Below, piece by piece: positions 279 to 18,023 of a stretch of 48,335 bases of DNA. The DNA is taken from positions 1-48,335 of the IMG/VR virus record IMGVR_UViG_3300014202_000218; one strand, given 5' to 3'. The DNA is from a virus (lineage: Duplodnaviria > Caudoviricetes). A program made the position numbers and the translations under genes. The first letter of the stretch is position 1. Each line of letters begins with the position of its first letter. Below the pieces are notes generated by a model, which worked only from the letters and a program-made list of their open reading frames with translations, did no database searches and was not told the origin of the DNA.

Positions 279-755
279 ATAGAATAGACACACGAATAGA
301 GTGAATACGGCTATAGAATCTGGAGTGTTTCCAGATAGAGTAATATACCACTAGAGAGGGTGCTAGGGTATATGGTTCATACTCGGAGCCGTATTCATTC
401 TGTTGGGATGTCTAGTCTATAGGACGGCTCACGAAGATTGAGTAATGAGTCTAATAGCTTATACGCACTAGATATACCCTATAGGGAGGTATCATCATGC
501 GGTGTTACTAATGGCCTGCAAGTATAATGAGCTAGAATAGAGGACCGGATAAATCCTTAGACAGACAAAACTGGATATAGGCTGGATAGGATTAGGGTCA
601 TATAGAGTATCGGCTATCTCATTCTATTCAGCCATATCTGGAACGCAGACATTTGGATAGAGTGTATAATAAGCTATCTCACAGAGAAGATAAGCTGGGT
701 TATATATCTTCCTAAAAAGAGATGTAGATATTATGCACTCTATCGAGGTGTCTGT
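279..755 (+). ncRNA. Highly structured non-coding leader with long G-U-containing stems
   Basis: Stems about 279-312/388-420, 573-596/617-639 and 646-670/730-755, with internal hairpins; mismatches are G-U compatible on the + strand. Confidence 0.55.
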
Positions 756-980
756 ATGAAGATGAAGGTAAATCATTTAGGTAGGATAGACAACATAGAC
801 AACGTTAGTCAAATCATTCACAATACTACAAAGGATAGGCTTCTAATTGTAGAAGAGGAAGATAAAGGATACCAAATACACGGTTACATTTCTTCTGAGA
901 TAGCCGACATCGAGGTAACATTTCCGGAGTACGATAATGAAGAAACGTTCACTTCTAATCCTCACACTAGCGGTAAGTAA
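756..980 (+). CDS. Hypothetical protein
   Basis: 74-aa ORF at the start of a tightly packed + strand gene run. Confidence 0.6.
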   Translation: MKMKVNHLGRIDNIDNVSQIIHNTTKDRLLIVEEEDKGYQIHGYISSEIADIEVTFPEYDNEETFTSNPHTSGK

Positions 981-1248
981 CACTATCGCCTGTAGTGGAG
1001 GTAATAGCATTCTCTCTCCATCTACAGGAGAGGGTAATGGTAGAACGGCTGTAGAGATAGAGCATAGCGAGACTCTACCTCTATCTATTATAGAGCCGTC
1101 TTACCTATGCTCAGAACGAGAAGCGTATCTCTCTGAGTATCTCTCTAGACCTACGGATGGAGTGATTGTTACTCTACCGTCGGGGGAAAAGGTATACATT
1201 GACTGGCTTGGACGTGTATATCACATCGAAGGACCGGAGTGTCAGTAA
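937..1248 (+). CDS. Putative lipoprotein
   Basis: MKKR, hydrophobic stretch, lipobox-like TIA-C, then Ser/Gly/Pro linker. Confidence 0.6.
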   Translation: MKKRSLLILTLAVSNTIACSGGNSILSPSTGEGNGRTAVEIEHSETLPLSIIEPSYLCSEREAYLSEYLSRPTDGVIVTLPSGEKVYIDWLGRVYHIEGPECQ

Positions 1249-1403
1249 TGACTTACCTAGAGTGGATTGAAAAGCTCGAATCAATTAGAATGCAATACTT
1301 AGAGGGAGCTATTACTGAGCGTGAGTTCTTCAATGCAACAATAGCACGAGCTATTGAAGTAGAGCAGACTGAAGAAGATACACAATTAGAGGAACCTAAG
1401 TAA
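1248..1403 (+). CDS. Hypothetical 51-aa protein (not in ORF track)
   Basis: TAATG-coupled start; MTYLEWIEKLESIRMQYLEGAITEREFFNA...; fills the gap between neighbouring genes. Confidence 0.7.
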   Translation: MTYLEWIEKLESIRMQYLEGAITEREFFNATIARAIEVEQTEEDTQLEEPK

Positions 1404-1406
1404 GAA

Positions 1407-2198
1407 GTGAAACTCTCACTCAGCACTGACGGTCGTATCATAGGATATGACTGTATTCAGTGCAGTAGTTACAATGACATTCTCTCTGTCTATTGTCACT
1501 ACTGTTCTGCATACAGAGATGCAGGTATATCATATCGTGAGATTGAATGGTATACAGCCGTTCGGCGTGACGTTCACTTAGACTACAATCCACGACCCAT
1601 CTATCCGAGTAAAATGACAAACGAAGATAGAGTCGAGTTATACAAGAAGTTCTATGATGGTGCTGCTCTAAAGGTAGCATCTATGACTCTAGATCAACTC
1701 ATTGCACGAGGCGATGAGCTAGAGGAAATAATCATAGAAGCTAAAGCAGAGGCTCAGGCTACAACGGCTGAGCGTAGGAAACGAGAGGCTAATCTTTCAC
1801 GTTCTGAGAGAGAGAAGCTAATCACTAAACCGGATATTACTGGAACTGAGGCGCTTAACGGCCCAAAGGTTCGTAAAGATAGGATGTCTAAAGCGGATAA
1901 ACTCCGTGAGACATATGTATCTTTGGGTATGTCCGAAGCTGAAATCAATGCTATTATGAAGAACATTAGTGTTGATGAAACGAAGAAGAAAGCTCCTGAA
2001 GTAATCAAACGGCTCGGCGCTACAGACTCGAAGGAACGTTATACCTTTACGAAAGACGAACAGAAAGGTGATATCACTAGAGAAGTAGAACCTACAGTAG
2101 AACAGTCTATTGATAAGACTATCTCTGAGGCTCAGTCAGAGGGAGATATTCCAAAGCCTAAGATGGACTTCTCAAAGCTCTCATTCTTGAAGAAGTAA
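1407..2198 (+). CDS. Hypothetical protein with N-terminal CxxC pairs and coiled coil
   Basis: 263-aa ORF with CIQC and CHYC motifs. Confidence 0.75.
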   Translation: MKLSLSTDGRIIGYDCIQCSSYNDILSVYCHYCSAYRDAGISYREIEWYTAVRRDVHLDYNPRPIYPSKMTNEDRVELYKKFYDGAALKVASMTLDQLIARGDELEEIIIEAKAEAQATTAERRKREANLSRSEREKLITKPDITGTEALNGPKVRKDRMSKADKLRETYVSLGMSEAEINAIMKNISVDETKKKAPEVIKRLGATDSKERYTFTKDEQKGDITREVEPTVEQSIDKTISEAQSEGDIPKPKMDFSKLSFLKK

Positions 2199-2205
2199 TA
2201 AGACA

Positions 2206-3810
2206 ATGACTTCTACTACTACACACTATATCTGCCCTAAATGTGAGGCAGATTCTGTAGAGAAATCTCGCGTGAAGTTTGGCGAGAAAGTAATCGTATC
2301 TCTACTGTGTGGTCATGTAGTCCCTGAGACGGCTCTTATTCCGCTACGGGATAAGGGCTATTCACTACTTCACTCTCTCGGATACAGAGATTATCAAATT
2401 GAGGGAGTGAAGTTTGCTGAAGAATCAAGAACTACTATCGGTGGTAAGGAAGGAATACGCTGCCTTATTGCCGATGAGCAAGGATTAGGCAAGACGTGGC
2501 AGGCATCTGGAGTAATTGCACTTCATGATGATATGTTTCCTGCCATTGTCGTAACTAAGACTACACTGACTATTCAGTGGTGGCATGAACTCCGGCGTTT
2601 AGTGGGTCATGATAAGACATATCAGGTCATTCGTTCTGGGAAGGAAATGGCTATCCCGGGATTTGATGTATATGTCCTGACGTATGACCTACTAAAGAAA
2701 CACGAATTCATATTTGCTCTACTCGGAGAATACCCTAAGACTCTGATTCTAGATGAATGCCAGTCTATTAAGAACCACGCATCCGGCCGTGCTGGAGCCG
2801 TCTACGAGGTAGCTGATAAGGCATTCAATATTATTGGTCTATCAGGGACTCCGATTAAGAATCATGCCGGAGAGTATTTCTCAATCCTGAATATCCTCCG
2901 GCCTGATATCTTCTCTAGCTATGACCGTTACGTAGATGAGCACTGTGATTTCTACGATACGGCATACGGTAGGAAGATTGGTGGATTGAAGAATCCGGAC
3001 CTATTCCAGGATCTTACGAGAAAGTTTATCATTCGTCGCACTAGAGCAGAGGCTGCACCTGAATTACCTACGATGGAGAGAGTATTCCATCACGTAGAAC
3101 TCTCGAAGAAGCTTCAGTCTGCATATAAGGACGCTGTTAAAGAACTCGAAGAACTCCTATATGCAGAGCAAGATGAGGACACAATGTCCAATATGCTTGC
3201 TATCTACGCTAAGATGCGTAAGATTACCGGCTTATCAAAGGGTGCTCTAGAGTGTGTGGATTATGTTACGGATTTCCTCTTATCCACAGATAGGAAGATT
3301 GTTATCTTTCTTCATCATCATACTGTGGCTACTTTGTTGGAGGCTAACCTTAATAAGTGGTTATCGGATGGTGGATACAGACCTATTCTGAATCTACACT
3401 CTGGACTCTCTGGAGAACAGAGAGCAGAGACAGTAAGGAAATTCAGAGAAGAGCCGTATAGAGTAATGATTGCATCTACTCTTGCGGCTGGTGAAGGATT
3501 GAATCTTCAGTTCTGTTCTGATGCTATCATGCTGGAGAGGCAATGGAATCCAGCTAATGAGGAACAAGCAGAGGGTAGATTTATTCGACTGGGACGAGCT
3601 TCAGATGCCGGTCCTGTAAGAATGATTTACATGATTGCATCTGAAACTATTGATGAATACTTCACTGAGCTTGTAGAATCCAAGAGAGCAATCATGGCAT
3701 CTACACTAGATGGTAAGGATATATCATGGGATCAGACTTCACTGATGAAAGAACTAGCCCAAGCAATCGTATCCAAGGGCAAGACAAAGTGGACGATGAC
3801 AAAAGGGTAA
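2206..3810 (+). CDS. SNF2/SWI2-family helicase (HARP-like) with N-terminal Zn ribbon
   Basis: LIADEQGLGKT, LILDECQ, LSGTPIKN, AAGEGLNLQ, WNPANEEQAEGRFIRLG motifs. Confidence 0.93.
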   Translation: MTSTTTHYICPKCEADSVEKSRVKFGEKVIVSLLCGHVVPETALIPLRDKGYSLLHSLGYRDYQIEGVKFAEESRTTIGGKEGIRCLIADEQGLGKTWQASGVIALHDDMFPAIVVTKTTLTIQWWHELRRLVGHDKTYQVIRSGKEMAIPGFDVYVLTYDLLKKHEFIFALLGEYPKTLILDECQSIKNHASGRAGAVYEVADKAFNIIGLSGTPIKNHAGEYFSILNILRPDIFSSYDRYVDEHCDFYDTAYGRKIGGLKNPDLFQDLTRKFIIRRTRAEAAPELPTMERVFHHVELSKKLQSAYKDAVKELEELLYAEQDEDTMSNMLAIYAKMRKITGLSKGALECVDYVTDFLLSTDRKIVIFLHHHTVATLLEANLNKWLSDGGYRPILNLHSGLSGEQRAETVRKFREEPYRVMIASTLAAGEGLNLQFCSDAIMLERQWNPANEEQAEGRFIRLGRASDAGPVRMIYMIASETIDEYFTELVESKRAIMASTLDGKDISWDQTSLMKELAQAIVSKGKTKWTMTKG

Positions 3811-3938
3811 AGATTCCTACTGAATGTATGTCTACAGGATATGCGCACTGTGGGCATTATCCCTGCATTCAAGGTAATATCTGCTGCATGTGTGGAGGGG
3901 ATAGATACGTATATGAACAAAAGATTGGAAGTTCTTAA
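3789..3938 (+). CDS. Small Cys-rich hypothetical protein
   Basis: GTG start near the helicase stop; C/H-rich (CGHYPC, CCMC). Confidence 0.4.
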   Translation: MDDDKRVKIPTECMSTGYAHCGHYPCIQGNICCMCGGDRYVYEQKIGSS

Positions 3939-4101
3939 CGGCTCTATCTCTTTACACCAGGTATCTCGTATCTACGTAGGTGGTAAATATGAGCGCCGAA
4001 TGTTCCTCTCATGTCAGAATGAACGAGAGGTTGCTGACATGAGAGTGAACAATGAGCAGATAGAAGAACTGATTAAGATGTTACAGGAGGCTATTAAATG
4101 A
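3913..4101 (+). CDS. Hypothetical protein
   Basis: ATG 3913 after GGAGG; overlaps the next start. Confidence 0.6.
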   Translation: MNKRLEVLNGSISLHQVSRIYVGGKYERRMFLSCQNEREVADMRVNNEQIEELIKMLQEAIK

Positions 4102-4280
4102 ATATATCTGAACAATTGCACAATGACGCTGAAAAACAGTTAGATACCATAATCTCTTTTGCTAATGAAGTAGAGGAAAACTTTCGCCTCAAGCGGTATG
4201 AAGATGCCTCGTGTACTCTTGATGAGTTAGAAAGTGAAGTAAAGAAAGCTAAGAAGTTAATCGATCAGATGTGGGAATAA
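4098..4280 (+). CDS. Hypothetical helical protein
   Basis: AGGAGG RBS, coupled start. Confidence 0.7.
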   Translation: MNISEQLHNDAEKQLDTIISFANEVEENFRLKRYEDASCTLDELESEVKKAKKLIDQMWE

Positions 4281-4284
4281 GTCG

Positions 4285-4707
4285 ATGACCATCCAACCTG
4301 TGAATCAAGGTAGCAATCATTTCTGTGGACCAGCCGTTATCTCGTGTATCACGGGGAAGAATACCGATGAGATAGAACGGATGGTTCAACAGCTTCGTCA
4401 GCGTGTAATGCCTGTAACGGGGATGACATCGGTAGAAATTCGCTCTATCTTAGAGAAATGTGGATGTCTCTGTTATGAGTTATCGCAGACACGAGGAATG
4501 TCTATTCTTTACTTGATGCAAACGAGGAAGTTTACTCATGGTGTGTATCTATTCTACGTAATCAATCACGTAGTGGCTATTGAGATTGGTGAGGATGGTA
4601 AGAGATACATCATTGACAATCACACTAAATCTCCTCTTACTCTAGGTTCATCTTCACGTCTGACTCAGAAGGTTCTCGCGGTGGTTAAGGTGGAGGTGGG
4701 GAAATGA
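4285..4707 (+). CDS. Papain-like (C39-like) cysteine peptidase
   Basis: Q..N.CGPAV, NHVVAI, YIIDN give a putative Cys-His-Asp triad. Confidence 0.6.
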   Translation: MTIQPVNQGSNHFCGPAVISCITGKNTDEIERMVQQLRQRVMPVTGMTSVEIRSILEKCGCLCYELSQTRGMSILYLMQTRKFTHGVYLFYVINHVVAIEIGEDGKRYIIDNHTKSPLTLGSSSRLTQKVLAVVKVEVGK

Positions 4708-4895
4708 TGGGGCAGGATAGATTAGCTATCGCTAATGATATTATTGACGAAATTATTAAAGATCTTAGGGATAGAAGGGGGTTTCGTCATCTTCTAGAGA
4801 GTATTGAGATGGAAGATCCAGATACCTATAAAGATATTCATGACACATTAGCCCATATTACAGCTACTATCCTTAACGATTACGATGTGAGGTAG
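4704..4895 (+). CDS. Hypothetical protein
   Basis: GGAGG RBS, coupled start. Confidence 0.7.
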   Translation: MMGQDRLAIANDIIDEIIKDLRDRRGFRHLLESIEMEDPDTYKDIHDTLAHITATILNDYDVR

Positions 4896-4896
4896 T

Positions 4897-5178
4897 ATGA
4901 CATTCACTATAGACGTTACGGATGAGGATATCCGTAATGGGAAGAAAACAGATTGTTATAATTGCCCTATTGCTCTAGCTATTAAGAGAGCATTTGATGG
5001 TAGTGGTTATACTTTATCAGCAGTATCTTCTTATCAAATCGGATTTTATATCTCTAAGGGTTTATTTAATAATGCGCCACTAGAGCCCAGAGTAACAAAC
5101 TTCATTCGCGGGTTTGATACTGACGGATTCATGGGCAATAAGATCTCTCAGCCGTTCTCGTTCGAGTTGGAGGTGTAG
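4897..5178 (+). CDS. Hypothetical protein, paralog of 5184-5447
   Basis: VTDEDIRNG...CYNCPIALAIKRA...FIRGFD...QPFSF. Confidence 0.8.
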   Translation: MTFTIDVTDEDIRNGKKTDCYNCPIALAIKRAFDGSGYTLSAVSSYQIGFYISKGLFNNAPLEPRVTNFIRGFDTDGFMGNKISQPFSFELEV

Positions 5179-5183
5179 AGAAT

Positions 5184-5447
5184 ATGACTGAGTATAACAC
5201 ACTGCTAAAAGTAGAAGTAACGGCTGAAGATATTAAAGAAGGTAAGAGAAAGAGTTGTACCAGTTGTCCTATTGCTCTTGCGTTTCGTAGGGCATTGGGG
5301 CATGACGAAGTAAAAGTCGGTGAGATCTATACCAAGATAGGTAAGAGAGAATACCGTACTCCAAAGGTAGCTTTTCAATTTATTACCTTATTCGATAAGT
5401 ACCAAAAGGTAGAACCGTTTACTTTCTATATGCAGCTAGTAGACTAA
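5184..5447 (+). CDS. Hypothetical protein, paralog of 4897-5178
   Basis: VTAEDIKEG...CTSCPIALAFRRA...FITLFD...EPFTF. Confidence 0.8.
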   Translation: MTEYNTLLKVEVTAEDIKEGKRKSCTSCPIALAFRRALGHDEVKVGEIYTKIGKREYRTPKVAFQFITLFDKYQKVEPFTFYMQLVD

Positions 5448-5450
5448 ATA

Positions 5451-5672
5451 ATGGCCATCAAATACTTCTGCGACCGCTGTGCTACTGAAGTTGATTCTAA
5501 AGGAAAGCTGCATAGGCTATCATTTAATACAGACTCTAACGACGCTCTCTACCATAGAGAACAGGTTAAGTTCGATAAAGAACTCTGTATTAGCTGCCTT
5601 CGTGCTGTATATGCTGTAGCTAATGTGTACGAGACAGAAGTTGAACTAGTTCCAAAAACTCAGGAGGTATAG
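5451..5672 (+). CDS. Small Zn-finger protein
   Basis: CDRC...LCISC. Confidence 0.7.
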   Translation: MAIKYFCDRCATEVDSKGKLHRLSFNTDSNDALYHREQVKFDKELCISCLRAVYAVANVYETEVELVPKTQEV

Positions 5673-5676
5673 TTAT

Positions 5677-5844
5677 ATGTCACTTTCACACCAAGAGTGG
5701 AAACAGATGTGGGAAGCTATTAGAGCGATTGAGGACTCAGTAAAAACATTCAATTCAATGAACATGCTTAAAGTTAGAATCATTGAGAAGGAGATTAACT
5801 TTATTAAAGATAAAATAGAGTCTGTAGTAGGGCAGATGGAATAG
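5677..5844 (+). CDS. Hypothetical 55-aa protein (not in ORF track)
   Basis: AGGAGG RBS; MSLSHQEWKQMWEAIRAIED...GQME. Confidence 0.7.
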   Translation: MSLSHQEWKQMWEAIRAIEDSVKTFNSMNMLKVRIIEKEINFIKDKIESVVGQME

Positions 5845-5853
5845 CTCCACACC

Positions 5854-5929
5854 GGACCACTAGCTCAAAGGTTAGAGCACCCGGCTCATAATCGGATGGT
5901 TCTAGGTTCAAGTCCTAGGTGGTCCACCA
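5854..5929 (+). tRNA. tRNA with CAT anticodon, most likely tRNA-Ile2 (lysidine)
   Basis: GGACCAC/GTGGTCC acceptor stem, D arm, CTCATAA loop, TTCAAGT T loop, encoded CCA; C4-G69/C5-G68 pairs as in Ile2 tRNAs. Confidence 0.92.
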
Positions 5930-5941
5930 TAAAGGTATGTT

Positions 5942-6136
5942 ATGAAATATAGAATCACAGTCCATTTGGTGCAGGGTATATCAGAGGTGTATAGTGTTGA
6001 TGATACTTTTACTATTAATACAGATGGTAGATTCACAATGGTTGAAAGTAGTGATCGAGTAGGAGAATGGAAGTCTAACACCTTTGATGGTTTCTATAAA
6101 GAAGATATTAGGAAGATTGAGATTGAGGTTATCTAA
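5942..6136 (+). CDS. Hypothetical protein
   Basis: 64-aa ORF in operon context. Confidence 0.65.
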   Translation: MKYRITVHLVQGISEVYSVDDTFTINTDGRFTMVESSDRVGEWKSNTFDGFYKEDIRKIEIEVI

Positions 6137-6139
6137 ACC

Positions 6140-6337
6140 TTGTCCGTCCGTCTAATGCGGCTGAGTCCCAATCTGAGGTATAAGAACGTAGTAGTTCAGT
6201 TGTCCTCTTGGCCTGCTGTATATGACTGGATATATTTTCGTCGTGGCCGTAATGGTCGTGATTCAATAGCACGGATGGTATGGGTAGAGGATATATATTT
6301 ACCAGCCGTTCGGCTTAGGAATACGAGGGGGGGGTAA
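6140..6337 (+). CDS. Hypothetical protein
   Basis: Fills the gap; TTG start after GAGG, start uncertain. Confidence 0.4.
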   Translation: MSVRLMRLSPNLRYKNVVVQLSSWPAVYDWIYFRRGRNGRDSIARMVWVEDIYLPAVRLRNTRGG

Positions 6338-6343
6338 AGAAGA

Positions 6344-6550
6344 ATGCCTAAAGGTATTGTTTATATAGATGAAGAGACTAGTGACGAAATGCATGGAGAA
6401 TGTCTCCTAGATAATGAGATGGTTATTACCAAAGATGAAGCATCCGAACTCTTATACGCCATGAAGAATCATTGGATTGAACGGATCGAGCCACATTACT
6501 CCATCATGAGCCAGTTGTTGAAGAAGCTACGAGAGTTAGCGTATGACTGA
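6344..6550 (+). CDS. Hypothetical protein
   Basis: 68-aa ORF with G-rich RBS. Confidence 0.65.
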   Translation: MPKGIVYIDEETSDEMHGECLLDNEMVITKDEASELLYAMKNHWIERIEPHYSIMSQLLKKLRELAYD

Positions 6551-7467
6551 TGTGGAATTCATATGAAATTTACAGTATCAAAGGTATCATAAAAGTGGAT
6601 ATCATAAAAAGTCCTAAGATTAATTATGTGTTTGATGCCACGATGTTCGATACATTCTTGGATTGTCCACAGAAGTTTAATCTAAGGCATATTCAGAATC
6701 GTGTTACACCTGAGAAGCAGAAGCCGCTCGATCGTGGTGGTATTATGCACGTAGGATTTGAGTCTTACTATAAGGCTCTAGCTGAGGGTAAGAAGTGGGA
6801 AGATGCGATTACGGCTGGACTAGTAGATATGAGGTTTGGTCTGGCTTCAGACTCTGACCTCTCTACTGATGATGGTAATCGTTGTCTTGAAGTATTTGAA
6901 GAGTCAGCTACCTTTTGGCGTGCTGATGATTTATCATGGGAGATTGTTGCTGTAGAGAAGCCGTTCTTGTACGTACTCTATGAGGATGATACATTTCGTA
7001 TTGCTATGATGGGGAAGATTGACCTTCTCCGTTCTAACAATAGATATACGAACTGTCCTATGGATCATAAGACGTATGAGAGAGACTTCCCAGTAACACG
7101 GCTGACGAATCAGTTTCAGAACTATGCTTTCGCTACGAAATCAGATTACCTATTCGTGAATCGGGTAGGATTCCAGACATCGCTGAAGTCAGAGAAGAAG
7201 CATAAGAGGATTCCACTATCCTACGACGCAGCTATTCTATCTCAGTGGAGAACGAACGTCATTCGTTGGGTAATGCACTATCATGACTGCGCCGTGTCAA
7301 ACGAGTGGCCTTTGAATACTACGTCATGTGGCAAATACAATCGTCTTTGTGAGTATCATGGTATCTGTGATACATCAGGAGAAGAGAATAAGATCTACAA
7401 ACTAGAGACACAGTTCAGGAAAGATACTCCTTGGGATGTCTCTTATGTTCTCTCGAAGAAGGGGTAG
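6550..7467 (+). CDS. PD-(D/E)XK Cas4/AddB-like exonuclease with Fe-S Cys cluster
   Basis: DCP at N-terminus, G...H, VE, GKIDL, DHKT, QF..Y, C-terminal C..YNRLCEY..IC. Confidence 0.88.
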   Translation: MWNSYEIYSIKGIIKVDIIKSPKINYVFDATMFDTFLDCPQKFNLRHIQNRVTPEKQKPLDRGGIMHVGFESYYKALAEGKKWEDAITAGLVDMRFGLASDSDLSTDDGNRCLEVFEESATFWRADDLSWEIVAVEKPFLYVLYEDDTFRIAMMGKIDLLRSNNRYTNCPMDHKTYERDFPVTRLTNQFQNYAFATKSDYLFVNRVGFQTSLKSEKKHKRIPLSYDAAILSQWRTNVIRWVMHYHDCAVSNEWPLNTTSCGKYNRLCEYHGICDTSGEENKIYKLETQFRKDTPWDVSYVLSKKG

Positions 7468-7470
7468 GGT

Positions 7471-7734
7471 ATGCACCGTAGAGATTTTCTACGATATCTA
7501 TTATCCTCAGCCGTTGCGGCTACAGTAGATGTAGAGAAACTATTATGGGTACCAGGAGAGAAGAAGATATTTGTTCCTTCTCCTAAACAAGTAGAGTTAT
7601 TTGGTATACCATATCATCAGTCTAATGCACACACTGGGACGTGGTTAGGTATAGAGCGTAGTATATATCCTTGGTTTAGGTCAAATGAAGATGCCAAAAG
7701 ATACTCTAAGAGCCTGGAACTTCCCAAACGGTAG
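7471..7734 (+). CDS. Small protein with twin-arginine-like N-terminus and a copy of a major-capsid segment
   Basis: MHRRDFL leader; LFGIPYHQSNAHTGTWLGIER matches capsid LFGVPYHNSNASTGTWLGLDR. Confidence 0.8.
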   Translation: MHRRDFLRYLLSSAVAATVDVEKLLWVPGEKKIFVPSPKQVELFGIPYHQSNAHTGTWLGIERSIYPWFRSNEDAKRYSKSLELPKR

Positions 7735-7960
7735 TAGTATTACATCTTCTCCATCTCCCGACACGCCGTATAAAGGTGTTACATTGAAGGTTGATATGAT
7801 TGATGAAATTGTATACATGGATCTGGCAGAAGTAGAGAATCGCGTTATGCTTGCCTTTGATCCTGATTCTACTGAAGAAGAGGATGAAGATGAGGACGAG
7901 GATGACCTTGATGAAGATGAAGATGATGACGAGGACGAAGAAGAGGAAGATGAGGATTAG
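7685..7960 (+). CDS. Small mosaic protein with terminase-like and PolA-like motifs and a polyacidic tail
   Basis: WNFPNGSSI...YKG.......IDE; DLAEVENRV; about 30 D/E residues at the C-terminus. Confidence 0.75.
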   Translation: MKMPKDTLRAWNFPNGSSITSSPSPDTPYKGVTLKVDMIDEIVYMDLAEVENRVMLAFDPDSTEEEDEDEDEDDLDEDEDDDEDEEEEDED

Positions 7961-7976
7961 GTAACGAGGATACACT

Positions 7977-8420
7977 ATGGCAAAATCTCTTACGCCCAGA
8001 CCGCCTAAGCATATACATAAACTTAAACGCCACAAGTACTCTAATGGCGAGGAAGTATATTTTTGTATGCTACCTCGGTGTAGGTTTAAGGTTATTACTG
8101 CTATGGCTCTTGGTGAGGAATCAATTTGCCATCGCTGTGATAAGCCTTTCATCATGAACGAGATTACAATACGGCTCTCTAAACCACATTGTAGTCTCTG
8201 TACCGTGAGAAAAGGTAATAAAGAGGATATTACACCAATACTAGACGTAGCCGTATCTACGATTCTACCAGAGCGTCGACGTTCTACTCTTATACAAGAA
8301 GGAGATCATGTCTCAGACCTCAGGTCAAGACTCTCTAGGGTTAAAGGACAAGATACTGTACTACCTGATTCTACTCTATCATCATCTGAGGGACTTCCTC
8401 CTGATGAGGATATGGTGTAG
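7977..8420 (+). CDS. Zn-finger protein
   Basis: HxH, CMLPRC, CHRC, CSLC; GAGG RBS. Confidence 0.75.
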   Translation: MAKSLTPRPPKHIHKLKRHKYSNGEEVYFCMLPRCRFKVITAMALGEESICHRCDKPFIMNEITIRLSKPHCSLCTVRKGNKEDITPILDVAVSTILPERRRSTLIQEGDHVSDLRSRLSRVKGQDTVLPDSTLSSSEGLPPDEDMV

Positions 8421-8631
8421 ACACGAGGACGTAGTTAAAACTCATAGAGACAACAAGGTTTTTACCTTCTGTACACACTGTGGATACGAGAGTCCAGGAA
8501 TAACGTTAGAGAAAAGGTTTACATATAATGCCCCGATCAGCAGAGAATATTCAACCGGGATCTCTAACAGGGAACCCATCATTTCTATTCAAGAGTTCAC
8601 CAGGCGGAGGAAAAACTCTCGCGGCTTGTAG
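8308..8631 (+). CDS. Small Zn-binding protein (start uncertain)
   Basis: WCRH...CTHCGYESPG motif bridging the 8420-8528 gap; overlaps both neighbours. Confidence 0.45.
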   Translation: MSQTSGQDSLGLKDKILYYLILLYHHLRDFLLMRIWCRHEDVVKTHRDNKVFTFCTHCGYESPGITLEKRFTYNAPISREYSTGISNREPIISIQEFTRRRKNSRGL

Positions 8632-9367
8632 TGCGGCTATATTCGGTAGGGTATATCTTGCTTACTTTGATAAAGCAGAACCTATTGAACTAGCCTGGCT
8701 GCGAGAGTATCGTCCTGAACTTTTGAAACTTATTGATTGGGACCCATATTCCTCCGTCAATGCTCATGAGTATATTAATTTCCTCCGCCGTCTAGCAGAT
8801 AAGGGCAACCCATATGCAGCCGTTATCACAGACAGCGTGACATTCATGACATCTGCAGCCGTTAACTGGTCTCTCTCATTCAGACCAGAAGCTAAAGATG
8901 CACGTGGTACTATTGCTCTGCCAGACTTTGATGATTATAAGACTGAAGCGTCTTATGTATCTCAAGCTCTGGATATCTGTAAGGGTCTAAACTGTATTAA
9001 TATCTGGACCGCTCATCCGATGCCTCGCACTAAGATTGAGGCGAACGGCTCCAAGATTGGAAAGGTTACAACTCACGAGACTCTAGTATCTTACGGCACT
9101 AAAGTAGGAGCTATGATTGCTGGTGGGTTTCAAGAGATCTACCATTTCGGTAGACAGGGCAACGATAGAATAGTCTATACTGATGCAGTAGGCGATGATT
9201 ACGCCAAGACTTCAATTAAACTACCGAAGTCATTCAATATCACGAATAGACTATTCTTCGAGGTCTGGAAAGAGTACACAGACAAAGCAAAGGAGGAAGC
9301 TGATAAGGGAAACTTCAATCCATTCAAGGACCATGTAACGGAAGCATCTGCATCACGTTGGGAATAG
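8528..9367 (+). CDS. P-loop ATPase, AAA_24/Sak4-like recombination protein
   Basis: SSPGGGKT Walker A, VITDSVT Walker B, WTAH; lies between the exonuclease and the SSB. Confidence 0.8.
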   Translation: MPRSAENIQPGSLTGNPSFLFKSSPGGGKTLAACSAAIFGRVYLAYFDKAEPIELAWLREYRPELLKLIDWDPYSSVNAHEYINFLRRLADKGNPYAAVITDSVTFMTSAAVNWSLSFRPEAKDARGTIALPDFDDYKTEASYVSQALDICKGLNCINIWTAHPMPRTKIEANGSKIGKVTTHETLVSYGTKVGAMIAGGFQEIYHFGRQGNDRIVYTDAVGDDYAKTSIKLPKSFNITNRLFFEVWKEYTDKAKEEADKGNFNPFKDHVTEASASRWE

Positions 9368-9408
9368 TTAACGTTAACCTCACTTTCTTTTAGAATAGGA
9401 CACACAAA

Positions 9409-9852
9409 ATGCCTTTCGAAGCCGTTGTTACTCCCGATGACCTCAAAAAGGGCGACCTCGTTCCGGCTGGTTGGTATCCAGCTAAGATTGAGGAATACAA
9501 GGAAGAGATTACCAAGTCTTATGGTACGGCTGGTTCTCCTAACTATAAGCCTTCTGATGGTAGCACCAATTGTATTTTCAATCTGAAGCTTATCGAGCCG
9601 TCTGCCTATAAGGGTGTCTCGCCTCGTGTTCAGTATAATGAGAAAGCTCTTGGTTATGGCAAGAGTCTTTGGGAGGCTGTTGGTATTCCCTTTGATCCTG
9701 AGAAGGGATACAAGCTCAGCACCGCAGTCTTCAATAAGATGCCTGGTATGAATGTGGATGTCTATATCAAGCGCGGTGTCTCTTCAAATCAGAAGGAATT
9801 CAATGAGGTTGTTGAGTTCCGTAAGTTCGGCACTGGCAAGTACACGGCGTAG
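9409..9852 (+). CDS. Putative single-stranded DNA-binding protein (DUF669-like)
   Basis: LVPAGWYPAKI N-terminus, NEVVEF near C-terminus; follows the ATPase; strongly biased codons. Confidence 0.7.
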   Translation: MPFEAVVTPDDLKKGDLVPAGWYPAKIEEYKEEITKSYGTAGSPNYKPSDGSTNCIFNLKLIEPSAYKGVSPRVQYNEKALGYGKSLWEAVGIPFDPEKGYKLSTAVFNKMPGMNVDVYIKRGVSSNQKEFNEVVEFRKFGTGKYTA

Positions 9853-9866
9853 TGTAGTGTAAGAGT

Positions 9867-9947
9867 TTGGGTCGAAGGTGTCTATCGAATATATTGAATA
9901 AGATAGATGGATACTAGGCGTCCAGTTTGGAGCATCCTTCGACCCAA
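9867..9947 (+). ncRNA. Intergenic three-way-junction RNA structure
   Basis: 12-bp closing stem ttgggtcgaagg/ccttcgacccaa enclosing two hairpins. Confidence 0.5.
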
Positions 9948-9965
9948 TTTAATGAGGATACTATA

Positions 9966-10220
9966 ATGTCACAAGCCGTTGACACATTTCTACCGTCTCG
10001 TACCTACAACGTTAGATTCAAGTTCAGAGGCGGCTCTAAAGTATATGAATGGCTTGGAGTACACGTTAAGCAAGACGGCTATTTCATTGTACTCACTACA
10101 CAAGATGGTACTAGTCATAAGTACCATACCTATGGTATCATAGAGAGGCATTTCGAGCTATGCCCATTGGAAGAGACTTCATCGACTCTGGTGGGAAAAG
10201 AGGCAGCAGCAGGCCAGTAG
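9966..10220 (+). CDS. Hypothetical protein
   Basis: GAGG RBS before ATG 9966, which is more likely than TTG 9927. Confidence 0.7.
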   Translation: MSQAVDTFLPSRTYNVRFKFRGGSKVYEWLGVHVKQDGYFIVLTTQDGTSHKYHTYGIIERHFELCPLEETSSTLVGKEAAAGQ

Positions 10221-10366
10221 AAAAACACGACGGTACTATTTCTTTTATACTATTACAAGACGGCTCAGTAAGAATCGTTCTTCCACCCAATCGTAAATCT
10301 GTTATCCTACAGCGTAGCCATTTAAGACGGCTAGCTCGGTGGATTATGTCTGTAACGGAGGAGTAG
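10160..10366 (+). CDS. Hypothetical protein
   Basis: 68-aa ORF in operon context. Confidence 0.55.
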   Translation: MPIGRDFIDSGGKRGSSRPVEKHDGTISFILLQDGSVRIVLPPNRKSVILQRSHLRRLARWIMSVTEE

Positions 10367-10370
10367 TGTT

Positions 10371-10655
10371 ATGTATGAAGATAGTAGAGATACAGAGCCA
10401 GGCTGCTCGAACGAGAAGCGTTTGATAACTGATAAGGAACTTGAGTATAATCATCGCATGACGAATCAGTGTAATCAGTCAAAGAGTGTGGGACCTAGCC
10501 GTATTCATATTAAAGAGTCTCTTCTTTCTCGCCAGAGAATCTTAATGGAAGAGCTTACTATCATTAATAGAACCCTTGAAGCCCTTACACCAGAAATAGA
10601 GGACCATTTTAGTCTTCTTAAGGATCTTTCTAGGCTAGGTTACAGACTCTACTAG
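10371..10655 (+). CDS. Hypothetical protein
   Basis: GGAGG RBS, 94 aa. Confidence 0.7.
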   Translation: MYEDSRDTEPGCSNEKRLITDKELEYNHRMTNQCNQSKSVGPSRIHIKESLLSRQRILMEELTIINRTLEALTPEIEDHFSLLKDLSRLGYRLY

Positions 10656-10687
10656 TCCGATTAACATCTCTTGACACGGAGTACCCA

Positions 10688-10942
10688 ATGGTAAAGAAAA
10701 CCTGGCAAGAGAGGTCTCAGGAAACGGCTGAATACCACAAAAGAAGAGTACGTGAAAAGCACCCTGAGTATCACTCGATTCGAGATACGGCTGATGAACT
10801 ACGTCGTTCTGTTGGTTCCATTACTGAGGATCTTATTCTTGATTCATGGATGAAAACGCACCCTAAAGTAGAAGAAATGCCATTTGCTTACCAAGCCTTA
10901 GAATTTATTAGGGACAAAAAGAGAGAGCTGAGATTACGATGA
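10688..10942 (+). CDS. Putative HTH DNA-binding protein
   Basis: SIRDTADELRRSVGSITEDL HTH-like pattern. Confidence 0.6.
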   Translation: MVKKTWQERSQETAEYHKRRVREKHPEYHSIRDTADELRRSVGSITEDLILDSWMKTHPKVEEMPFAYQALEFIRDKKRELRLR

Positions 10943-11484
10943 TACTTATTGGACTTGGTAATAAGGCTAGACAGGGCAAGAATACTGTAGCTGTAGAACT
11001 GTGTAAACTGTTCGCTCATCAAGGAGTATATGCAAAGCAGTATGCTTTTGCTGATGCACTTAAGGACTACTGCCGTGTAGCCTATGGCATGAAAGATAAA
11101 GACCCACGTCTACTCCAATTAGTTGGCACTGATATCTTCCGTGAGCGTATAGATTCTAATACGTGGGTCAATGTCCTCAAATCTAAACTAGAAGATGAGA
11201 ATCCCGAGGTAGGAATCGTTACGGATGTAAGATTCGAGAATGAAGTGGGCCTTATCTGGCTTTATAATGGAATCACCATCCGCGTAACTCGGATTGATGC
11301 TAATGGAGAGGTATTCTCTTCCCAAGATCGTGACCCTAACCATCCATCTGAGCTAGCTTTGGATAACCCACGGCACTGGTATGAACATATCGTAGCTTCT
11401 AATCTCTCTGACCTTCACAACGAGACGGCTTGTATGTTCGAGCAAGTTATTTATCCCCATTACCTTCGTTATAGGAGTGTTTAA
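10939..11484 (+). CDS. Deoxynucleoside monophosphate kinase (T4 gp1-like)
   Basis: IGLGNKARQGKNT, FADALK, RLLQLVGTD, VTDVRFENE, HPSE. Confidence 0.9.
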   Translation: MILIGLGNKARQGKNTVAVELCKLFAHQGVYAKQYAFADALKDYCRVAYGMKDKDPRLLQLVGTDIFRERIDSNTWVNVLKSKLEDENPEVGIVTDVRFENEVGLIWLYNGITIRVTRIDANGEVFSSQDRDPNHPSELALDNPRHWYEHIVASNLSDLHNETACMFEQVIYPHYLRYRSV

Positions 11485-12289
11485 CATGAGAGACGCTGTT
11501 CACATTGGAACTATTGAGTTTGGTAGAATGCCCCAGGTAAAGGATTATACTCCTACTGTAACAATTGAATCAGTAGAGCTTGGCCCAGATGGTAATAATG
11601 GGGGATACGCATTCTCTTTTACTCCTCGTGCTTGGCCTAATGTTCAGATTGCTACTTGGACTGGTCCTCTTCAGTATACTGTTTTTGTAGGCCGGAAGGT
11701 AGCTGGAGTATGGCATATGGCTGGAGTAATCCAGATGTGGGCCAATCGTAAATGGACTGGTGCTCCTATTAGCTCATTCTGGAAAGACTGGGCATATGAT
11801 AGATCGTGGGTGGGCGAACTGTTTAACTTAGATAATGCTATTCCAGGAGAAGAAATCCTCTTCATGCTTGTGCATGGTAATGCTAGGTATGGGATGGAGA
11901 GAGAAGCACTCTCTCTTGGTTCTAATCTGCCAGAACGTTCAAACATCATTAAGATCATTATGCCAGCCGTTCACCAGGGCAAATTCGTTTTTGGTAATGG
12001 AGTAGAGATTCCATCTAATCCTCCGTCTATCCCAGAGCCGTCTGTACCCACACTACCAGTTCCACCTACTACTCCTATTGTTGACACTCTAGGTTCTGTT
12101 TTGGCTGATATCATGAGGGTCCAGAACAACATGCTCACTGTCATTGAAGCCCAGAATGAACTCATTGGGCGTCTTGTTGAAGATGTTCAGGAGATTCGAA
12201 AGAATCAGAATAATCCATATGTTGGACAAACCTTCCTCGGAAGTATCACTATCCGAAGAGATAGTACCAGACAAGACGTCAAGTCCTAA
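11477..12289 (+). CDS. Trp-rich beta-domain protein with Pro-rich linker and coiled coil
   Basis: 270-aa ORF; WP...WTGPLQYT...GNAR...ERSNII. Confidence 0.75.
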   Translation: MFNMRDAVHIGTIEFGRMPQVKDYTPTVTIESVELGPDGNNGGYAFSFTPRAWPNVQIATWTGPLQYTVFVGRKVAGVWHMAGVIQMWANRKWTGAPISSFWKDWAYDRSWVGELFNLDNAIPGEEILFMLVHGNARYGMEREALSLGSNLPERSNIIKIIMPAVHQGKFVFGNGVEIPSNPPSIPEPSVPTLPVPPTTPIVDTLGSVLADIMRVQNNMLTVIEAQNELIGRLVEDVQEIRKNQNNPYVGQTFLGSITIRRDSTRQDVKS

Positions 12290-12521
12290 GGACTATACAC
12301 ATATTCGGTTCCCTGCGCACTCTCTACCTGGAATAGTTACTAGAATATGTGGCGTAACTGAGGGTGAATCTATTAGCTTTGAGCATTATGGAGAGAGGCA
12401 CATCAAGCCGGCAATATTAGGACAACTAGAACGGCTCCCATATCCACTATGCACAGACTGTATAGAGATATGTAGAGAAGCTTCTGATACAACTATATGC
12501 CCAACAGAGTCAACGGAATAG
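12219..12521 (+). CDS. Small Zn-binding hypothetical protein (start uncertain)
   Basis: H...ICG...LCTDC; fills the gap before the polymerase. Confidence 0.5.
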   Translation: MLDKPSSEVSLSEEIVPDKTSSPKDYTHIRFPAHSLPGIVTRICGVTEGESISFEHYGERHIKPAILGQLERLPYPLCTDCIEICREASDTTICPTESTE

Positions 12522-15040
12522 GTCCCCTAAATGCTAAACTGATGATAGTAGGGGAAGCTCCAGGTAGGGCCGAAGATGAGACTGGCACTCCATTTGTAGG
12601 CCCAAGTGGTGAGATATTAGATGATCTACTCAGCCGTTCTGGTATCTCTAGGTCGGACGTATATATCACTAATGTAGTGAAGGTACGTCCACCTAATAAT
12701 ATCTGGGAAGCTCTCCCCTCTATCGGCATATCAGTACAAGAGGAGACACAGAAGCTATGGGAATTTGAGATAAACAAGATCCAACCCAATGCCATACTAG
12801 CCGTTGGCGATAAAGCCCTTACTGCCCTAACAGCAGAATCAGGAATAACCAACTGGAGAGGCTCTATTATACAGGGGAGGGATGGAATACAGAAGGTAGT
12901 TGCTACACTACATCCTGCTGTTCTATTCCCTCACCCCGGTAAACCAGCTTGGCCCTGGGTCTGGAAACGGCTGATAGAGAATGATGTACGTAAAGCAGTT
13001 CGTCAATCAACGTTTAAAGGATTCAATCTCCCTGAACGTACTCTTACAGTAGCACATAGCTATCATCAGGTATACAAGTTCTTTCAGGAATACCGTCTCT
13101 GTAAGAAAGCAGCTAATGACATAGAGTCAATTAATTCAATACCTGTATGTACTGGATTTGCATTCAATAAACATCACGCTCTATCCATTCCTCTTCTACA
13201 TAAGGCAGGTAAGAATCGTCTATCTGATATGACAGCTCATGAGGTAGCCCAGTGCTGGAAACTCATTCAGGAGGTATTTTCCACTGGCCTAGGTATCATT
13301 GGTCATAACTACATGTATGATGAGTTCAAACAAAATCTTCTTGGATTCCATGAGATTAACTGCGTATCCGATACGAAGCTCAAGGTTCATACTATATTCC
13401 CTGAACTCCCAGATAAAGACCTAGCTACCTGTCTCTCACTCTGGACTGACGAGCCGTTCTACAAAGAGGAAGGCAAAGAGCCAAAGTTTGGCCTGTTCAA
13501 CGTAGAGAAATTCTTCAAATACAATGCAAAAGACTGTGCTGCTACATTTGAACTTGACGAGGAAATGGAGTGCTCTCTTCAGGCTCTTGAGGATAAGCTC
13601 CATATCCCTCTGCGAAAATTCTATTACGACTATGTCATGCGGAAGCACGGATTCTACCTCCGCATGGCTAACAACGGCTTCCGTGTTGATCACAGACAAA
13701 AAGATATTCTTAAAGGTGCGTATGAATACCTTAGAGAAGTTGCCCATGAACATCTCGTCTCCCTCATAGGCACAGAGATTAATGTAAAGTCCGCTCCTCA
13801 GATGAAGAAGCTTCTCTATGAGGATATGGGCTTTACTATGCCTAAGAAGTGGACACCGAACGGCCAGATAGATAAAGATGGTGCTACGTCTGAAGATCAA
13901 ATCATCAATCTCATTAACGTACATTGCCGCTCTGGCCCTAACGTTAATCTGAAACGCTCTATTCTCGAAGGTATTCTACAAGAAAGGAGAATCAGGGATC
14001 AAATCTCTCGTGCTCTAGATTTTGTCCCTGACTATGATGGCCGCTGCAAAACATCGGTTAACATTGTCGGAACGGAGACTGCAAGAACTAGCACAGGAGT
14101 TCTCAAGAAACCCGTCAGACCTAAAAAGATTGGTCTTGGATTCCATACCATACCTAAACACGGACGACTTGCTAGAGATATCCGAAGCATGTTTATCCCA
14201 GATGAGGGCTTTGTTTTCATTCAAGGTGACCTCTCGCAAGCGGAAGCGCGGATAGTAGCCGTTCTGGCAGAGGATTGGGAGTTACTAAAAGCCTTTGATA
14301 TCATAGACATCCACCGCAGGACGGCTGCCATATTCTTTGGGTATACTAAGAATCTTGTTCTTACACCGGATTTCATTAAAGGTGTAGATGACCTAGAGAA
14401 AGATGGAGCAGAGCGTTATACTGGTAAGACATTCCGCCATGCTGGTAACTATGATATGGGCAAGCATACGGCTATGGTTAACTACAATACCAATGCCCAG
14501 AAGTATGAGATCAACACGGTCATATCCGAGTATCGCGCTGGAGAACACATTAGGAAATTCCACGAGGCATCTCCTAATATTAGAGCCGTCTTCCACCGAG
14601 ATATTCGTTTAGCTCTAGATTCGTCTCGTATTCTCATCAACCCATACGGACGCCCTAGAGAGTTCAATGGTAAGTATGAAGATGATCTATACAAAGAAGG
14701 ATTCGCACAGATACCACAGTCAACAGTAGCAGATACTACCCAGTCAGCCGGTATCTCAGCATGGGATGAATGGGGTCATGATTCACGTATTGCAATGTTC
14801 ATGTCAGAGAATCACGATGCTCTTGTGGCACAGGTACCGCTGAACGGCTGGAGAGATTATGCTAAATCACTCAAGCGACACATGGAAAGGGATATTGATT
14901 TTTCCACTTATTGTACTCTTCGCAGAAATTATACACTTCGTATCCCCGTTGATATTGAAGTATCTATTAACCCTTCTACGGGCCGAGTAACAAACTACGG
15001 CGAACTCACGAAGTGGACTAAGATAAAGGAGGCTGCGTGA
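12497..15040 (+). CDS. polA: Family A DNA polymerase with N-terminal family-4 uracil-DNA glycosylase domain and 3'-5' exonuclease
   Basis: GEAPG..E...G.PFVG, NVVK.RPP.N, HPA (UDG); DIE, GHNYMYD, YNAKD (exo); TARTS, DLSQAEAR, RYTGKTFRHAGNY, NHDAL (pol motifs). Confidence 0.95.
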   Translation: MPNRVNGIGPLNAKLMIVGEAPGRAEDETGTPFVGPSGEILDDLLSRSGISRSDVYITNVVKVRPPNNIWEALPSIGISVQEETQKLWEFEINKIQPNAILAVGDKALTALTAESGITNWRGSIIQGRDGIQKVVATLHPAVLFPHPGKPAWPWVWKRLIENDVRKAVRQSTFKGFNLPERTLTVAHSYHQVYKFFQEYRLCKKAANDIESINSIPVCTGFAFNKHHALSIPLLHKAGKNRLSDMTAHEVAQCWKLIQEVFSTGLGIIGHNYMYDEFKQNLLGFHEINCVSDTKLKVHTIFPELPDKDLATCLSLWTDEPFYKEEGKEPKFGLFNVEKFFKYNAKDCAATFELDEEMECSLQALEDKLHIPLRKFYYDYVMRKHGFYLRMANNGFRVDHRQKDILKGAYEYLREVAHEHLVSLIGTEINVKSAPQMKKLLYEDMGFTMPKKWTPNGQIDKDGATSEDQIINLINVHCRSGPNVNLKRSILEGILQERRIRDQISRALDFVPDYDGRCKTSVNIVGTETARTSTGVLKKPVRPKKIGLGFHTIPKHGRLARDIRSMFIPDEGFVFIQGDLSQAEARIVAVLAEDWELLKAFDIIDIHRRTAAIFFGYTKNLVLTPDFIKGVDDLEKDGAERYTGKTFRHAGNYDMGKHTAMVNYNTNAQKYEINTVISEYRAGEHIRKFHEASPNIRAVFHRDIRLALDSSRILINPYGRPREFNGKYEDDLYKEGFAQIPQSTVADTTQSAGISAWDEWGHDSRIAMFMSENHDALVAQVPLNGWRDYAKSLKRHMERDIDFSTYCTLRRNYTLRIPVDIEVSINPSTGRVTNYGELTKWTKIKEAA

Positions 15041-15267
15041 ACATTTATATCCTAGCTAGAGTACATCCAGAAAGCTCTGTAGATGTTATCGGTTACTCAC
15101 CAATTAAATGGTTATATGCAGATCCTATCCAAGCTATGTCAGGCTTAAAGGTTGTTAAAAGGCTATATCCTAATAATTACTGGAAAGTCTTGATGTATGA
15201 AGCGAAATTTCACGGTGTTCTAGAGGAAGTTATAGAGCCACGCACAGCAGAAGGGAGCTTAGAATAA
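15037..15267 (+). CDS. Hypothetical protein
   Basis: AGGAGG RBS, GTGA coupling. Confidence 0.7.
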   Translation: MNIYILARVHPESSVDVIGYSPIKWLYADPIQAMSGLKVVKRLYPNNYWKVLMYEAKFHGVLEEVIEPRTAEGSLE

Positions 15268-15572
15268 TGCCATTCCCAAAAGGTGGATCAGTATTTAGAC
15301 GTAACATTTGTGTAGTAGCAGGCTCAGTACAGGGAGGGATGGAGTTTGTTGTAAACCAGCATGGAGCGGATTGGATTAGGCATAAAGATCATTTTGCTGG
15401 TAGAACGTCTGACTCTATAAGGTATATCATTATAACAGATGAAGATAGGGAGAGGGTAGTGGGCTTGGAATTTGATGCACTCCTAGTATCCCCTTGCTAT
15501 ACAGACCTTGTGAAGTTTTGTAGTACTAGGGTCAGACTTAGAAGTGATAAAGAGGATCTGATAGGAGAGTAG
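15267..15572 (+). CDS. Small protein resembling a truncated terminase ATPase subdomain
   Basis: ICVVAGS.Q...DEDRERVVGLEFDALLV pattern, without Walker A or the DE pair. Confidence 0.65.
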   Translation: MPFPKGGSVFRRNICVVAGSVQGGMEFVVNQHGADWIRHKDHFAGRTSDSIRYIIITDEDRERVVGLEFDALLVSPCYTDLVKFCSTRVRLRSDKEDLIGE

Positions 15573-15573
15573 A

Positions 15574-15852
15574 ATGGGAATCCAGCGTATTATAACGTGC
15601 GATGTGTGTGGTATAGCCGTTGAGCCAGGAATAGATAATAGACTGGAACGTTTCGTCTCTATCTCTCCCGTAGGCCATGTACCATTCACAGCAAGGGTGC
15701 TTATTCAGATATCCTCTGACTATACACTCTGTGCTGAACATAAACGGTCCGTGCTAGAGGAACTATTCAAGCCATACGATGGATTCGATGATGATCTCTC
15801 CAGCCGTCTTACAGGCAGAGCGGCTCGGGCTAGACCACTAGTTCGTCGTTAG
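15574..15852 (+). CDS. Small Zn-finger protein
   Basis: CDVC...LCAEH; similar layout to 5451-5672. Confidence 0.7.
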   Translation: MGIQRIITCDVCGIAVEPGIDNRLERFVSISPVGHVPFTARVLIQISSDYTLCAEHKRSVLEELFKPYDGFDDDLSSRLTGRAARARPLVRR

Positions 15853-15898
15853 ACATTACTACTATAAGTTCTCCTACTACGTTCAGTACGACGCTACT

Positions 15899-16348
15899 AT
15901 GCTACAGCCAAACTATGTAGAGAGTATTAAATCTAAGCTACTACTTAACAAGGTAGTAGTTAATGACTGCTGGTTGTGGAAAGGTAAATATGGGAGACAG
16001 TGGATAGGAATAGATTATAAAACATACTTAGTTCATAGAGTATCTGCCTCCATATTCCTCGGTATGGATTTAGATTCACATGAATTAGTATGTCACAAGT
16101 TAATATGCCCAAACCCTGGTTGTTATAACCCTGATCATATCTATATTGGGGATACTTCAACCAATACTATAGATGTGGTTAAATCTGGTAAGTACAGGAA
16201 TGGGAATACTAACAAAACAGTATGTAAATGCGGCAAACCATATGACTCTTATACGATAAGAGCAAATGGCAAGATATGGAGAATATGTAAATCATGTAAG
16301 AATGAATCAAATAGAAAGTTGAGGCGTAAAAATAATGCTTCAACCTAA
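15899..16348 (+). CDS. HNH homing endonuclease
   Basis: CWLWKG, VHRVS, VCH..CPNPGCYNPDH, N..D, C-terminal CKCG...CKSC. Confidence 0.9.
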   Translation: MLQPNYVESIKSKLLLNKVVVNDCWLWKGKYGRQWIGIDYKTYLVHRVSASIFLGMDLDSHELVCHKLICPNPGCYNPDHIYIGDTSTNTIDVVKSGKYRNGNTNKTVCKCGKPYDSYTIRANGKIWRICKSCKNESNRKLRRKNNAST

Positions 16349-17588: not shown

Positions 17589-17826
17589 CGCTAAACTCAC
17601 CGGCCGTATTAAGAAGCCTAACAGCCGTGGATTCGGATTCATTGAGACGGCTGAAGGAATAGACTTCTTCTTCCACTATTCATCCTTCGATGGAGACTGG
17701 AAGAAGATGCTATCTAGTTACCTCGCTAATAATAACCTCGTGGTAGAGTTTGAGAATGACCCTACTACGATAGATGGACCTAAAGCTAAAAACGTTAAGA
17801 TTATAGGAACGGAGTCAGACCGATGA
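17581..17826 (+). CDS. Cold-shock domain protein
   Basis: RGFGFI (RNP1), FFFHYS (RNP2), GPKAKNV. Confidence 0.88.
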   Translation: MSNAKLTGRIKKPNSRGFGFIETAEGIDFFFHYSSFDGDWKKMLSSYLANNNLVVEFENDPTTIDGPKAKNVKIIGTESDR

Positions 17827-18023
17827 TGAAGGGTAAAGTTAAGAATCTTAAGCCGGAACAGAACTTCGGGTTTATTCGTGGAGAGGATGGTCAAGAGTAT
17901 TTCTTCCATCGCTCTGCTGTTGTTGGGGATTATTATGACTCTATGGAGAAAGGATCTCCTGTAGAGTTTGAGGGTGAAGATACACCTAAAGGGCTTAGAG
18001 CAGAGCAGGTTATTCTACTCTAG
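17823..18023 (+). CDS. Cold-shock domain protein
   Basis: KGKVK, FGFI, YFFHRS, VEF, PKGLRAEQV. Confidence 0.92.
   Translation: MMKGKVKNLKPEQNFGFIRGEDGQEYFFHRSAVVGDYYDSMEKGSPVEFEGEDTPKGLRAEQVILL

Follow-up and report, generated by a model that had tools for sequence, protein, structure and literature searches.

Genes and reading frames at the locus

The window analyzed here, 48,335 bases long, comprises an entire virus record. On the plus strand, from about 750 to 18,000, it carries small genes together with genes for an SNF2 helicase, a PD-(D/E)XK nuclease, a Sak4-like protein and a fusion of a uracil-DNA-glycosylase domain with a family A polymerase (UDG-PolA; 12497-15040, +). The minus strand holds the terminase, portal-like, capsid and tail genes, including an intact large terminase, TerL (38178-39842, -; phrog_979, E = 1.7e-39), and a putative major capsid gene (32977-34296, -), which has no library match and is assigned from its position after the portal and scaffold-like genes. 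The nuclease, a Cys/His gene, the Sak4-like gene and the polymerase are common to the syntenic phage G002, in which the UDG-PolA fusion gene is directly preceded by a leader gene of the kind described below. The capsid protein led to no prophage relatives when used as a query, and neither the nuclease nor the Sak4-like gene led to any relatives. Elsewhere on the plus strand lie a single tRNA-Met (5854-5929), a tandem pair of paralogous small genes (4897-5178 and 5184-5447) with a common C-x-x-CPIALA motif and no Pfam match, and a second tandem pair (17581-18023) that, judged by eye, presumably resembles cold-shock-domain proteins.

Between the nuclease gene and a Cys/His-rich gene, remote from the packaging genes and on the opposite strand to the structural ones, lies an open reading frame (ORF) of 91 amino acids (P0001; 7685-7960, +), which starts at 7685 or 7691. 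Its product comprises a terminase-ATPase-like segment (residues 6-47; 7700-7825, +) and a polyacidic tail (7874-7957, +). The beginning of the ORF overlaps the end of an 87-residue gene (P0004; 7471-7734, +) by 50 nt (7685-7734), so that WNFPNG is read at +1 over LELPKR-stop, a point that the first-pass annotation had missed. The upstream gene, with 17 homologues and a length that is normal for its family (71-104 aa), encodes a twin-arginine-type leader (TAT_signal E = 0.029, below the cut-off) followed by a capsid fragment; the N-terminal RR...LLW.PG leader is absent from the 91-residue product. The capsid-derived segment (7597-7686, +) matches residues 250-279 of the phage's own capsid protein (33460-33549, -) over 30 residues with an E value of 8e-14, which none of 2,000 shuffles reached, upholding the capsid copy that had been reported next to the ORF. 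At the DNA level, 57/90 nt are identical; as only 14 of the 30 third positions agree, the segment fits an old copy kept at the protein level.

Codon use was scored as log-odds trained on 26 long genes of the phage. Within the overlap (16 codons), the 91-residue frame scored +7.1 and the frame of the upstream gene +0.9. Downstream, the 91-residue frame scored +11.1 at 7736-7795 (other frames, -15.8 and -23.4) and +18.7 at 7796-7870; across the three tested segments, noncoding frames ranged from -15.8 to -36.9. The ribosome-binding site that precedes 7685/7691 has an energy of only -3.8 kcal/mol and is thus weak, as are those of real genes of this phage at 8528 (-3.4) and 9409 (-3.9). Later starts at 7796 and 7817 were rejected, with ribosome sites no better and coding-like codons upstream of them. 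As codon use favors the frame and its ribosome site is no weaker than those of real genes, the terminase-like part of the ORF is likely translated. The sole DNA read run leaves 7336-7837 uncovered.

The ORF is a singleton. Searches of annotated phages yielded no homologue, and G002 has no counterpart. In viral contigs, three loci were found, all short off-gene matches to the hairpin; in a protein database, one of two candidates was retained and proved to be the ORF itself; and phmmer against 1.84 billion representatives returned the ORF and four unrelated repeat proteins. A PDB search gave only propeller repeats and two weak matches. The structure model in a language-model atlas is of low confidence (pLDDT 0.35, pTM 0.14).

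Likeness to the terminase ATPase

The first-pass annotation had described this product as a string of three mimic epitopes, of terminase, PolA motif A and DNA, in a protein too short to be either enzyme. The motifs that it quoted are present: WNFPNGSSI at 7715-7741, YKG...IDE ending at 7807 and DLAEVENRV at 7820-7846, with counterparts in TerL (residues 106-140; 39423-39527, -) and in PolA (DLSQAEARI, from 14228). At 91 residues the product has neither a Walker A motif (G-x4-GK[ST], looked for along its whole length) nor a nuclease domain and cannot be an enzyme. The hallmarks of a large terminase that do occur, namely the FPNG hairpin, a G nine residues before Walker B and the IDE of Walker B itself, followed by the start of the next element, lie in order and in register with terminases, with modest scores; a whole ATPase, a nuclease and a family score over the cut-off are all lacking, so that the product does not qualify as a TerL.

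The first-pass parallel with the phage's own terminase was less secure. Among the long proteins of the window, TerL alone matches the ORF at E < 0.1 (E = 0.033), with a pairwise score of 46 that 5/2,000 shuffles reached and with only the hairpin aligned. Taken over all 90 long frames, the best scores of shuffles were 39.5 ± 4.0 with a maximum of 53; the pairwise match alone is therefore unconvincing, and for this reason profiles were built without the ORF. A profile of 25 terminases related to the phage's own, a subgroup set with six near-identical rows and two duplicates, gave 6.9 bits (0/3,000 shuffles) and placed the ORF as the best non-TerL segment among 426 in the window. With 29 Terminase_6N matches, drawn from the phylum of the genome that holds locus L038 and excluding L096 (below the cut-off), residues 6-46 align from the hairpin through the G to Walker B, at a level reached by 6/5,000 shuffles for the full profile (8/5,000 on repeat) and 11/5,000 for a cut one. 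A merged profile of 55 terminases, from which both the ORF and the phage's own TerL were excluded, aligned residues 9-47 in register at 7.4 bits (0/5,000 shuffles). Run over 42 small genes, it ranked the ORF first (6.2 bits; next, 1.0), and in a many-gene control the best of 42 was as high for 4 of 150 scrambled profiles. The terminase parallel thus holds beyond shuffle chance on these custom profiles, whereas Pfam, PHROGs and NCBIfam searches gave no match even at E = 10, a mixed outcome by the refuting condition that the first-pass annotation had set.

Further details of the segment bear on its register. Residues 230-260 of T4 gp17, a protein chosen for its known spacing that supplies one of the 55 merged rows and is absent from the 25- and 29-terminase profiles, align with the ORF ungapped at 10/31 identical positions (E = 0.005). 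The G nine residues before the Walker B Asp occurs in 30/43 terminases; the phage's own TerL has YDS in its place (39423-39470, -) and G002 has YDT, so that the fragment retains a residue replaced in its own phage's terminase. The hairpin-to-Walker B distance is 25, which only one of 25 measured terminases has. For residues 1-62, all five family-labeled clusters listed by the language-model atlas are terminase ATPase families (PF03354, PF03237, PF04466 and PF05876; 71-94 aa; 18-86% of members), with scores of 0.82-0.87, too low by the tool's own threshold to count as anything beyond a lead; the four nearest clusters are of 63-79 aa.

The signal is unevenly spread. Residues 1-24, mostly within the overlap with the upstream gene, were matched by 0/4,000 shuffles, while residues 18-62 alone, which lie outside it, were matched by 290/4,000 and are not significant. 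Of 4,763 small ORFs, mostly spurious, in the loci retrieved for comparison, no fewer than 14 outscored the 91-residue ORF on each Terminase_6N profile and 2 did so on the subgroup profile. One ORF of this pool, a 74-residue frame in G002 (L007 16781-17005, +), opens with IDE and a helix like the terminase stretch just after Walker B; it was reached by 5 to 16/5,000 shuffles on three terminase profiles and, being picked from 4,763, is a lead only. A profile search with the terminase segment returned 24 small proteins that by eye are broken ordinary terminases rather than a family of mini-genes. An hhalign probability of 87.8 was discounted, as its 17 rows had been chosen by a pattern that also fits the ORF; that pattern, found in 21/200,000 shuffles and matching nothing else in the window, yields an after-the-fact figure. 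DNA identity to the phage's own TerL is low (25/42 and 14/39 nt), and the ORF is consequently not a recent copy of it. Taken together, the terminase signal is modest, and we consider descent of this segment from a terminase probable.

The resemblance to PolA motif A is at chance level by the same kinds of comparison. The pairwise match was reached by 1,424/2,000 shuffles, the score on an uncut profile built from three UDG-PolA proteins by 628/2,000 and that on a profile trimmed post hoc to the surroundings of motif A by 121/5,000; moreover, D46-L47, the first residues of DLAEVENRV, lie inside the terminase alignment after Walker B. The polymerase parallel is therefore unsupported, and so is the string of three mimics. 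The tail, which had been put at about 30 acidic residues, holds D or E at 27 of the last 28 positions, and the net charge is -31. It is plain low-complexity acid in one block, for which no homology test is possible on account of that low complexity. Two further origins were tried and rejected: the acidic scaffold-like protein, as a source from which the tail might have been copied, gave no alignment, and an FDPD motif as a capsid remnant was matched by 666/3,000 shuffles and is at chance level.

Leader genes and capsid fragments

The upstream gene, with its leader and capsid fragment, belongs to a very large family with varied cargo. A motif scan retrieved 93 further loci, and 80 of their 88 distinct ORFs had the RR leader followed by very varied cargo. 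Fragments of this type of capsid protein occur in five leader genes of other contigs or phages, each at 0/500 shuffles, and one of these genes is joined from two separate pieces. At locus L004, tandem leader genes (2446-2733 and 2730-3038) carry three different pieces of the window's capsid type. In G002, a leaderless 113-residue gene just before the portal-like gene (L065 16555-16896, -) consists of two pieces of that phage's own capsid protein, the order of which is reversed (E = 2e-8 and 4e-5), and brings the capsid-fragment mini-genes of G002 to two. Judged by these alignments, small genes assembled from head-protein fragments do arise in this lineage, and this raises the prior for reading the 91-residue ORF as a terminase piece. 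Pairing of a leader gene with such a piece is not a rule: none of the 80 leader ORFs tested with terminase profiles had terminase-like cargo, and none of 128 leader loci had a mini-terminase as a neighbor. The evidence for the leader-capsid gene is stronger than that for the ORF that overlaps it.

Cargo of another kind was seen at three loci. A leader gene at L018 (4129-4797) has cargo like the start of a P22-type coat protein (PF11651, E = 0.18, below the cut-off), and those at L098 and L189 look similar by eye. The sole convincing leader gene in genome contigs (L038 5962-6288) lies in an Acidobacteria MAG, which hints weakly at host range but is no evidence on the host of this phage.

A possible decoy for terminase sensors

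We tentatively propose that the 91-residue product is a terminase-derived, noncatalytic decoy, one that would fill the binding site of a host terminase sensor (Upx or Avs, for instance) without activating it. The mimic reading is reasonable because a terminase piece is likely and because the capsid-fragment neighbor is genuine and one of a large family. According to the available text of Evans et al. (PMC13601566), the terminase ATPase domain triggers Upx and Avs2, Upx is activated by this domain alone and mostly regardless of the catalytic Asp, and Upx has been modeled to bind unfolded terminase strands by β-augmentation. The product would be a small and likely unfolded protein, its first half a cut-down piece of the large-terminase ATPase and the rest an acidic tail, and it may be made early, before the terminase. 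Its loose hairpin-to-Walker B peptide could then bind a terminase sensor competitively, leaving the occupied sensor blocked rather than triggered. The likeliest class of target would be a sensor that grips loose terminase β-strands, as modeled for Upx. Speculatively, the tail might keep the fragment soluble, or else hinder the assembly of an occupied sensor or its access to DNA. A broader version, possible but doubtful, is that the lineage assembles an early decoy cassette out of remnants of its hallmark proteins, with a capsid loop tagged for export and, after it, an unfolded terminase-strand peptide with a polyacid handle, which would jam β-augmentation sensors such as Upx.

A somewhat unlikely alternative is that the likeness to terminases arose by chance and that the ORF encodes a lineage-specific acidic protein whose polyanionic tail binds basic host or phage DNA-binding proteins near the recombination genes. 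Such a protein would account for the blank library searches and for a signal concentrated in one short motif, and with several hallmark proteins tried, the family-wise chance is not small (4/150 per profile). WNFP could itself be a by-product of the other frame, a possible origin given that SLELP, encoded over the hairpin in the upstream frame, weakly extends the capsid alignment, and that the G002 homologue of the upstream gene ends at the same distance. That frame, however, uses the rare codons CCC (0.07) and CGG (0.08) over the hairpin, whereas codon use in the overlap favors the 91-residue frame; the hairpin, G and DE stand in the right order and register, and the atlas independently picks terminase families. 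The same overlap of 50 nt, with frames one base apart, would also suit a frameshift-split second half of a leader-capsid-terminase-acid fusion, or a recent nonfunctional recombination product, as would the weak ribosome-binding site, the singleton status and the existence of leader genes stitched from several pieces (L004 2446). We regard this as improbable in view of the equally weak sites at real genes, the normal family length of the upstream gene and the low DNA identity to the phage's own TerL.

The sequence evidence for a decoy would serve equally for a terminase-derived piece that acts on the packaging motor, binding the large or small terminase of its own or a competing phage and delaying or poisoning packaging, and the retained G, lost in the phage's own TerL, would suit a foreign target. 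This too seems unlikely: a stretch of some 40 residues taken out of a sheet's core would offer no obvious free interface, and the gene is distant from the packaging genes, on the other strand. Most improbable by far is a multisensor sponge that imitates terminase, PolA motif A and DNA in a string. A sensor of family A polymerases does exist, Avs19 (PMC13581612), and the cut motif A profile was reached by only 121/5,000 shuffles, but whole-protein tests put the match at chance level, the motif opens within the terminase alignment, and in the accessible part of that report, Avs19 needed the core polymerase domain.

Almost all core proteins of phages are sensed by bacteria and are hard for the phages to alter. 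If the decoy is real, a 40-residue fragment of the trigger that blocks a terminase sensor would be a cheap and general way out, and the cassette, if real, would represent a class of anti-defense proteins made from minimal, nonactivating parts of the very trigger of immunity. Being a singleton whose signal is modest, the 91-residue ORF is a weaker example of such a class than the adjacent capsid-fragment gene. It would nevertheless be a minimal probe of the unfolded-strand binding predicted for Upx, and the gene is small and directly testable in the existing co-expression toxicity assay. The literature searched, which lies largely outside subscription journals, describes no decoys made of terminase or capsid fragments, nor does the accessible portion of the EVADES preprint (10.1101/2025.06.06.658234).

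Like the ATPase domain of large terminases (Terminase_6N, PF03237; phrog_979; T4 gp17, 230-260), the ORF product has NG..I, G and the Walker B DE in the same order and spacing; unlike them, it retains about 40 of some 230 residues, lacks Walker A and nuclease, matches no library and has an acid tail added. Other close parallels are T4 vs.8 and Ksap1/Ksap2, Avs2 activators other than terminases that are likewise small, lineage-restricted, terminase-ATPase-like phage proteins and for which, in the available text, the authors propose an anti-defense role for the phage (PMC13601566, PMC11564622). In those sources, vs.8 keeps Walker A, Walker B and the whole fold (PMC13601566), and Ksap1 is a folded 74-residue activator of KpAvs2 (PMC11564622), whereas the ORF product has neither Walker A nor a confident fold (atlas pTM 0.14), and an identity as a vs.8-like stand-alone ATPase was rejected on these grounds. 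Both known proteins activate their sensor, Avs2, while the ORF product is proposed to block, and this analogy argues against a decoy. The candidate targets, Upx and Avs1-3, recognize the ATPase domain, with Upx modeled to grip strands β1, 4, 5 and 6; the part of the study available describes no inhibitor derived from a piece of terminase (PMC13601566).

Among blockers, the comparison is with the DNA mimics Ocr and ArdA and with DSAD1, which are also small phage proteins that block defense by imitation, the negative charge recalling Ocr in particular. Ocr is a folded protein whose charge is patterned and spaced like DNA phosphates, whereas the acid of the ORF product forms a single low-complexity tail; DSAD1, to our knowledge, is not a cut-down copy of its trigger. 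By the sequence features tested, then, the 91-residue product is not a terminase, a polymerase piece or a vs.8-type ATPase, and by analogy it would work, if anything, like the mimicry-type anti-defense proteins.
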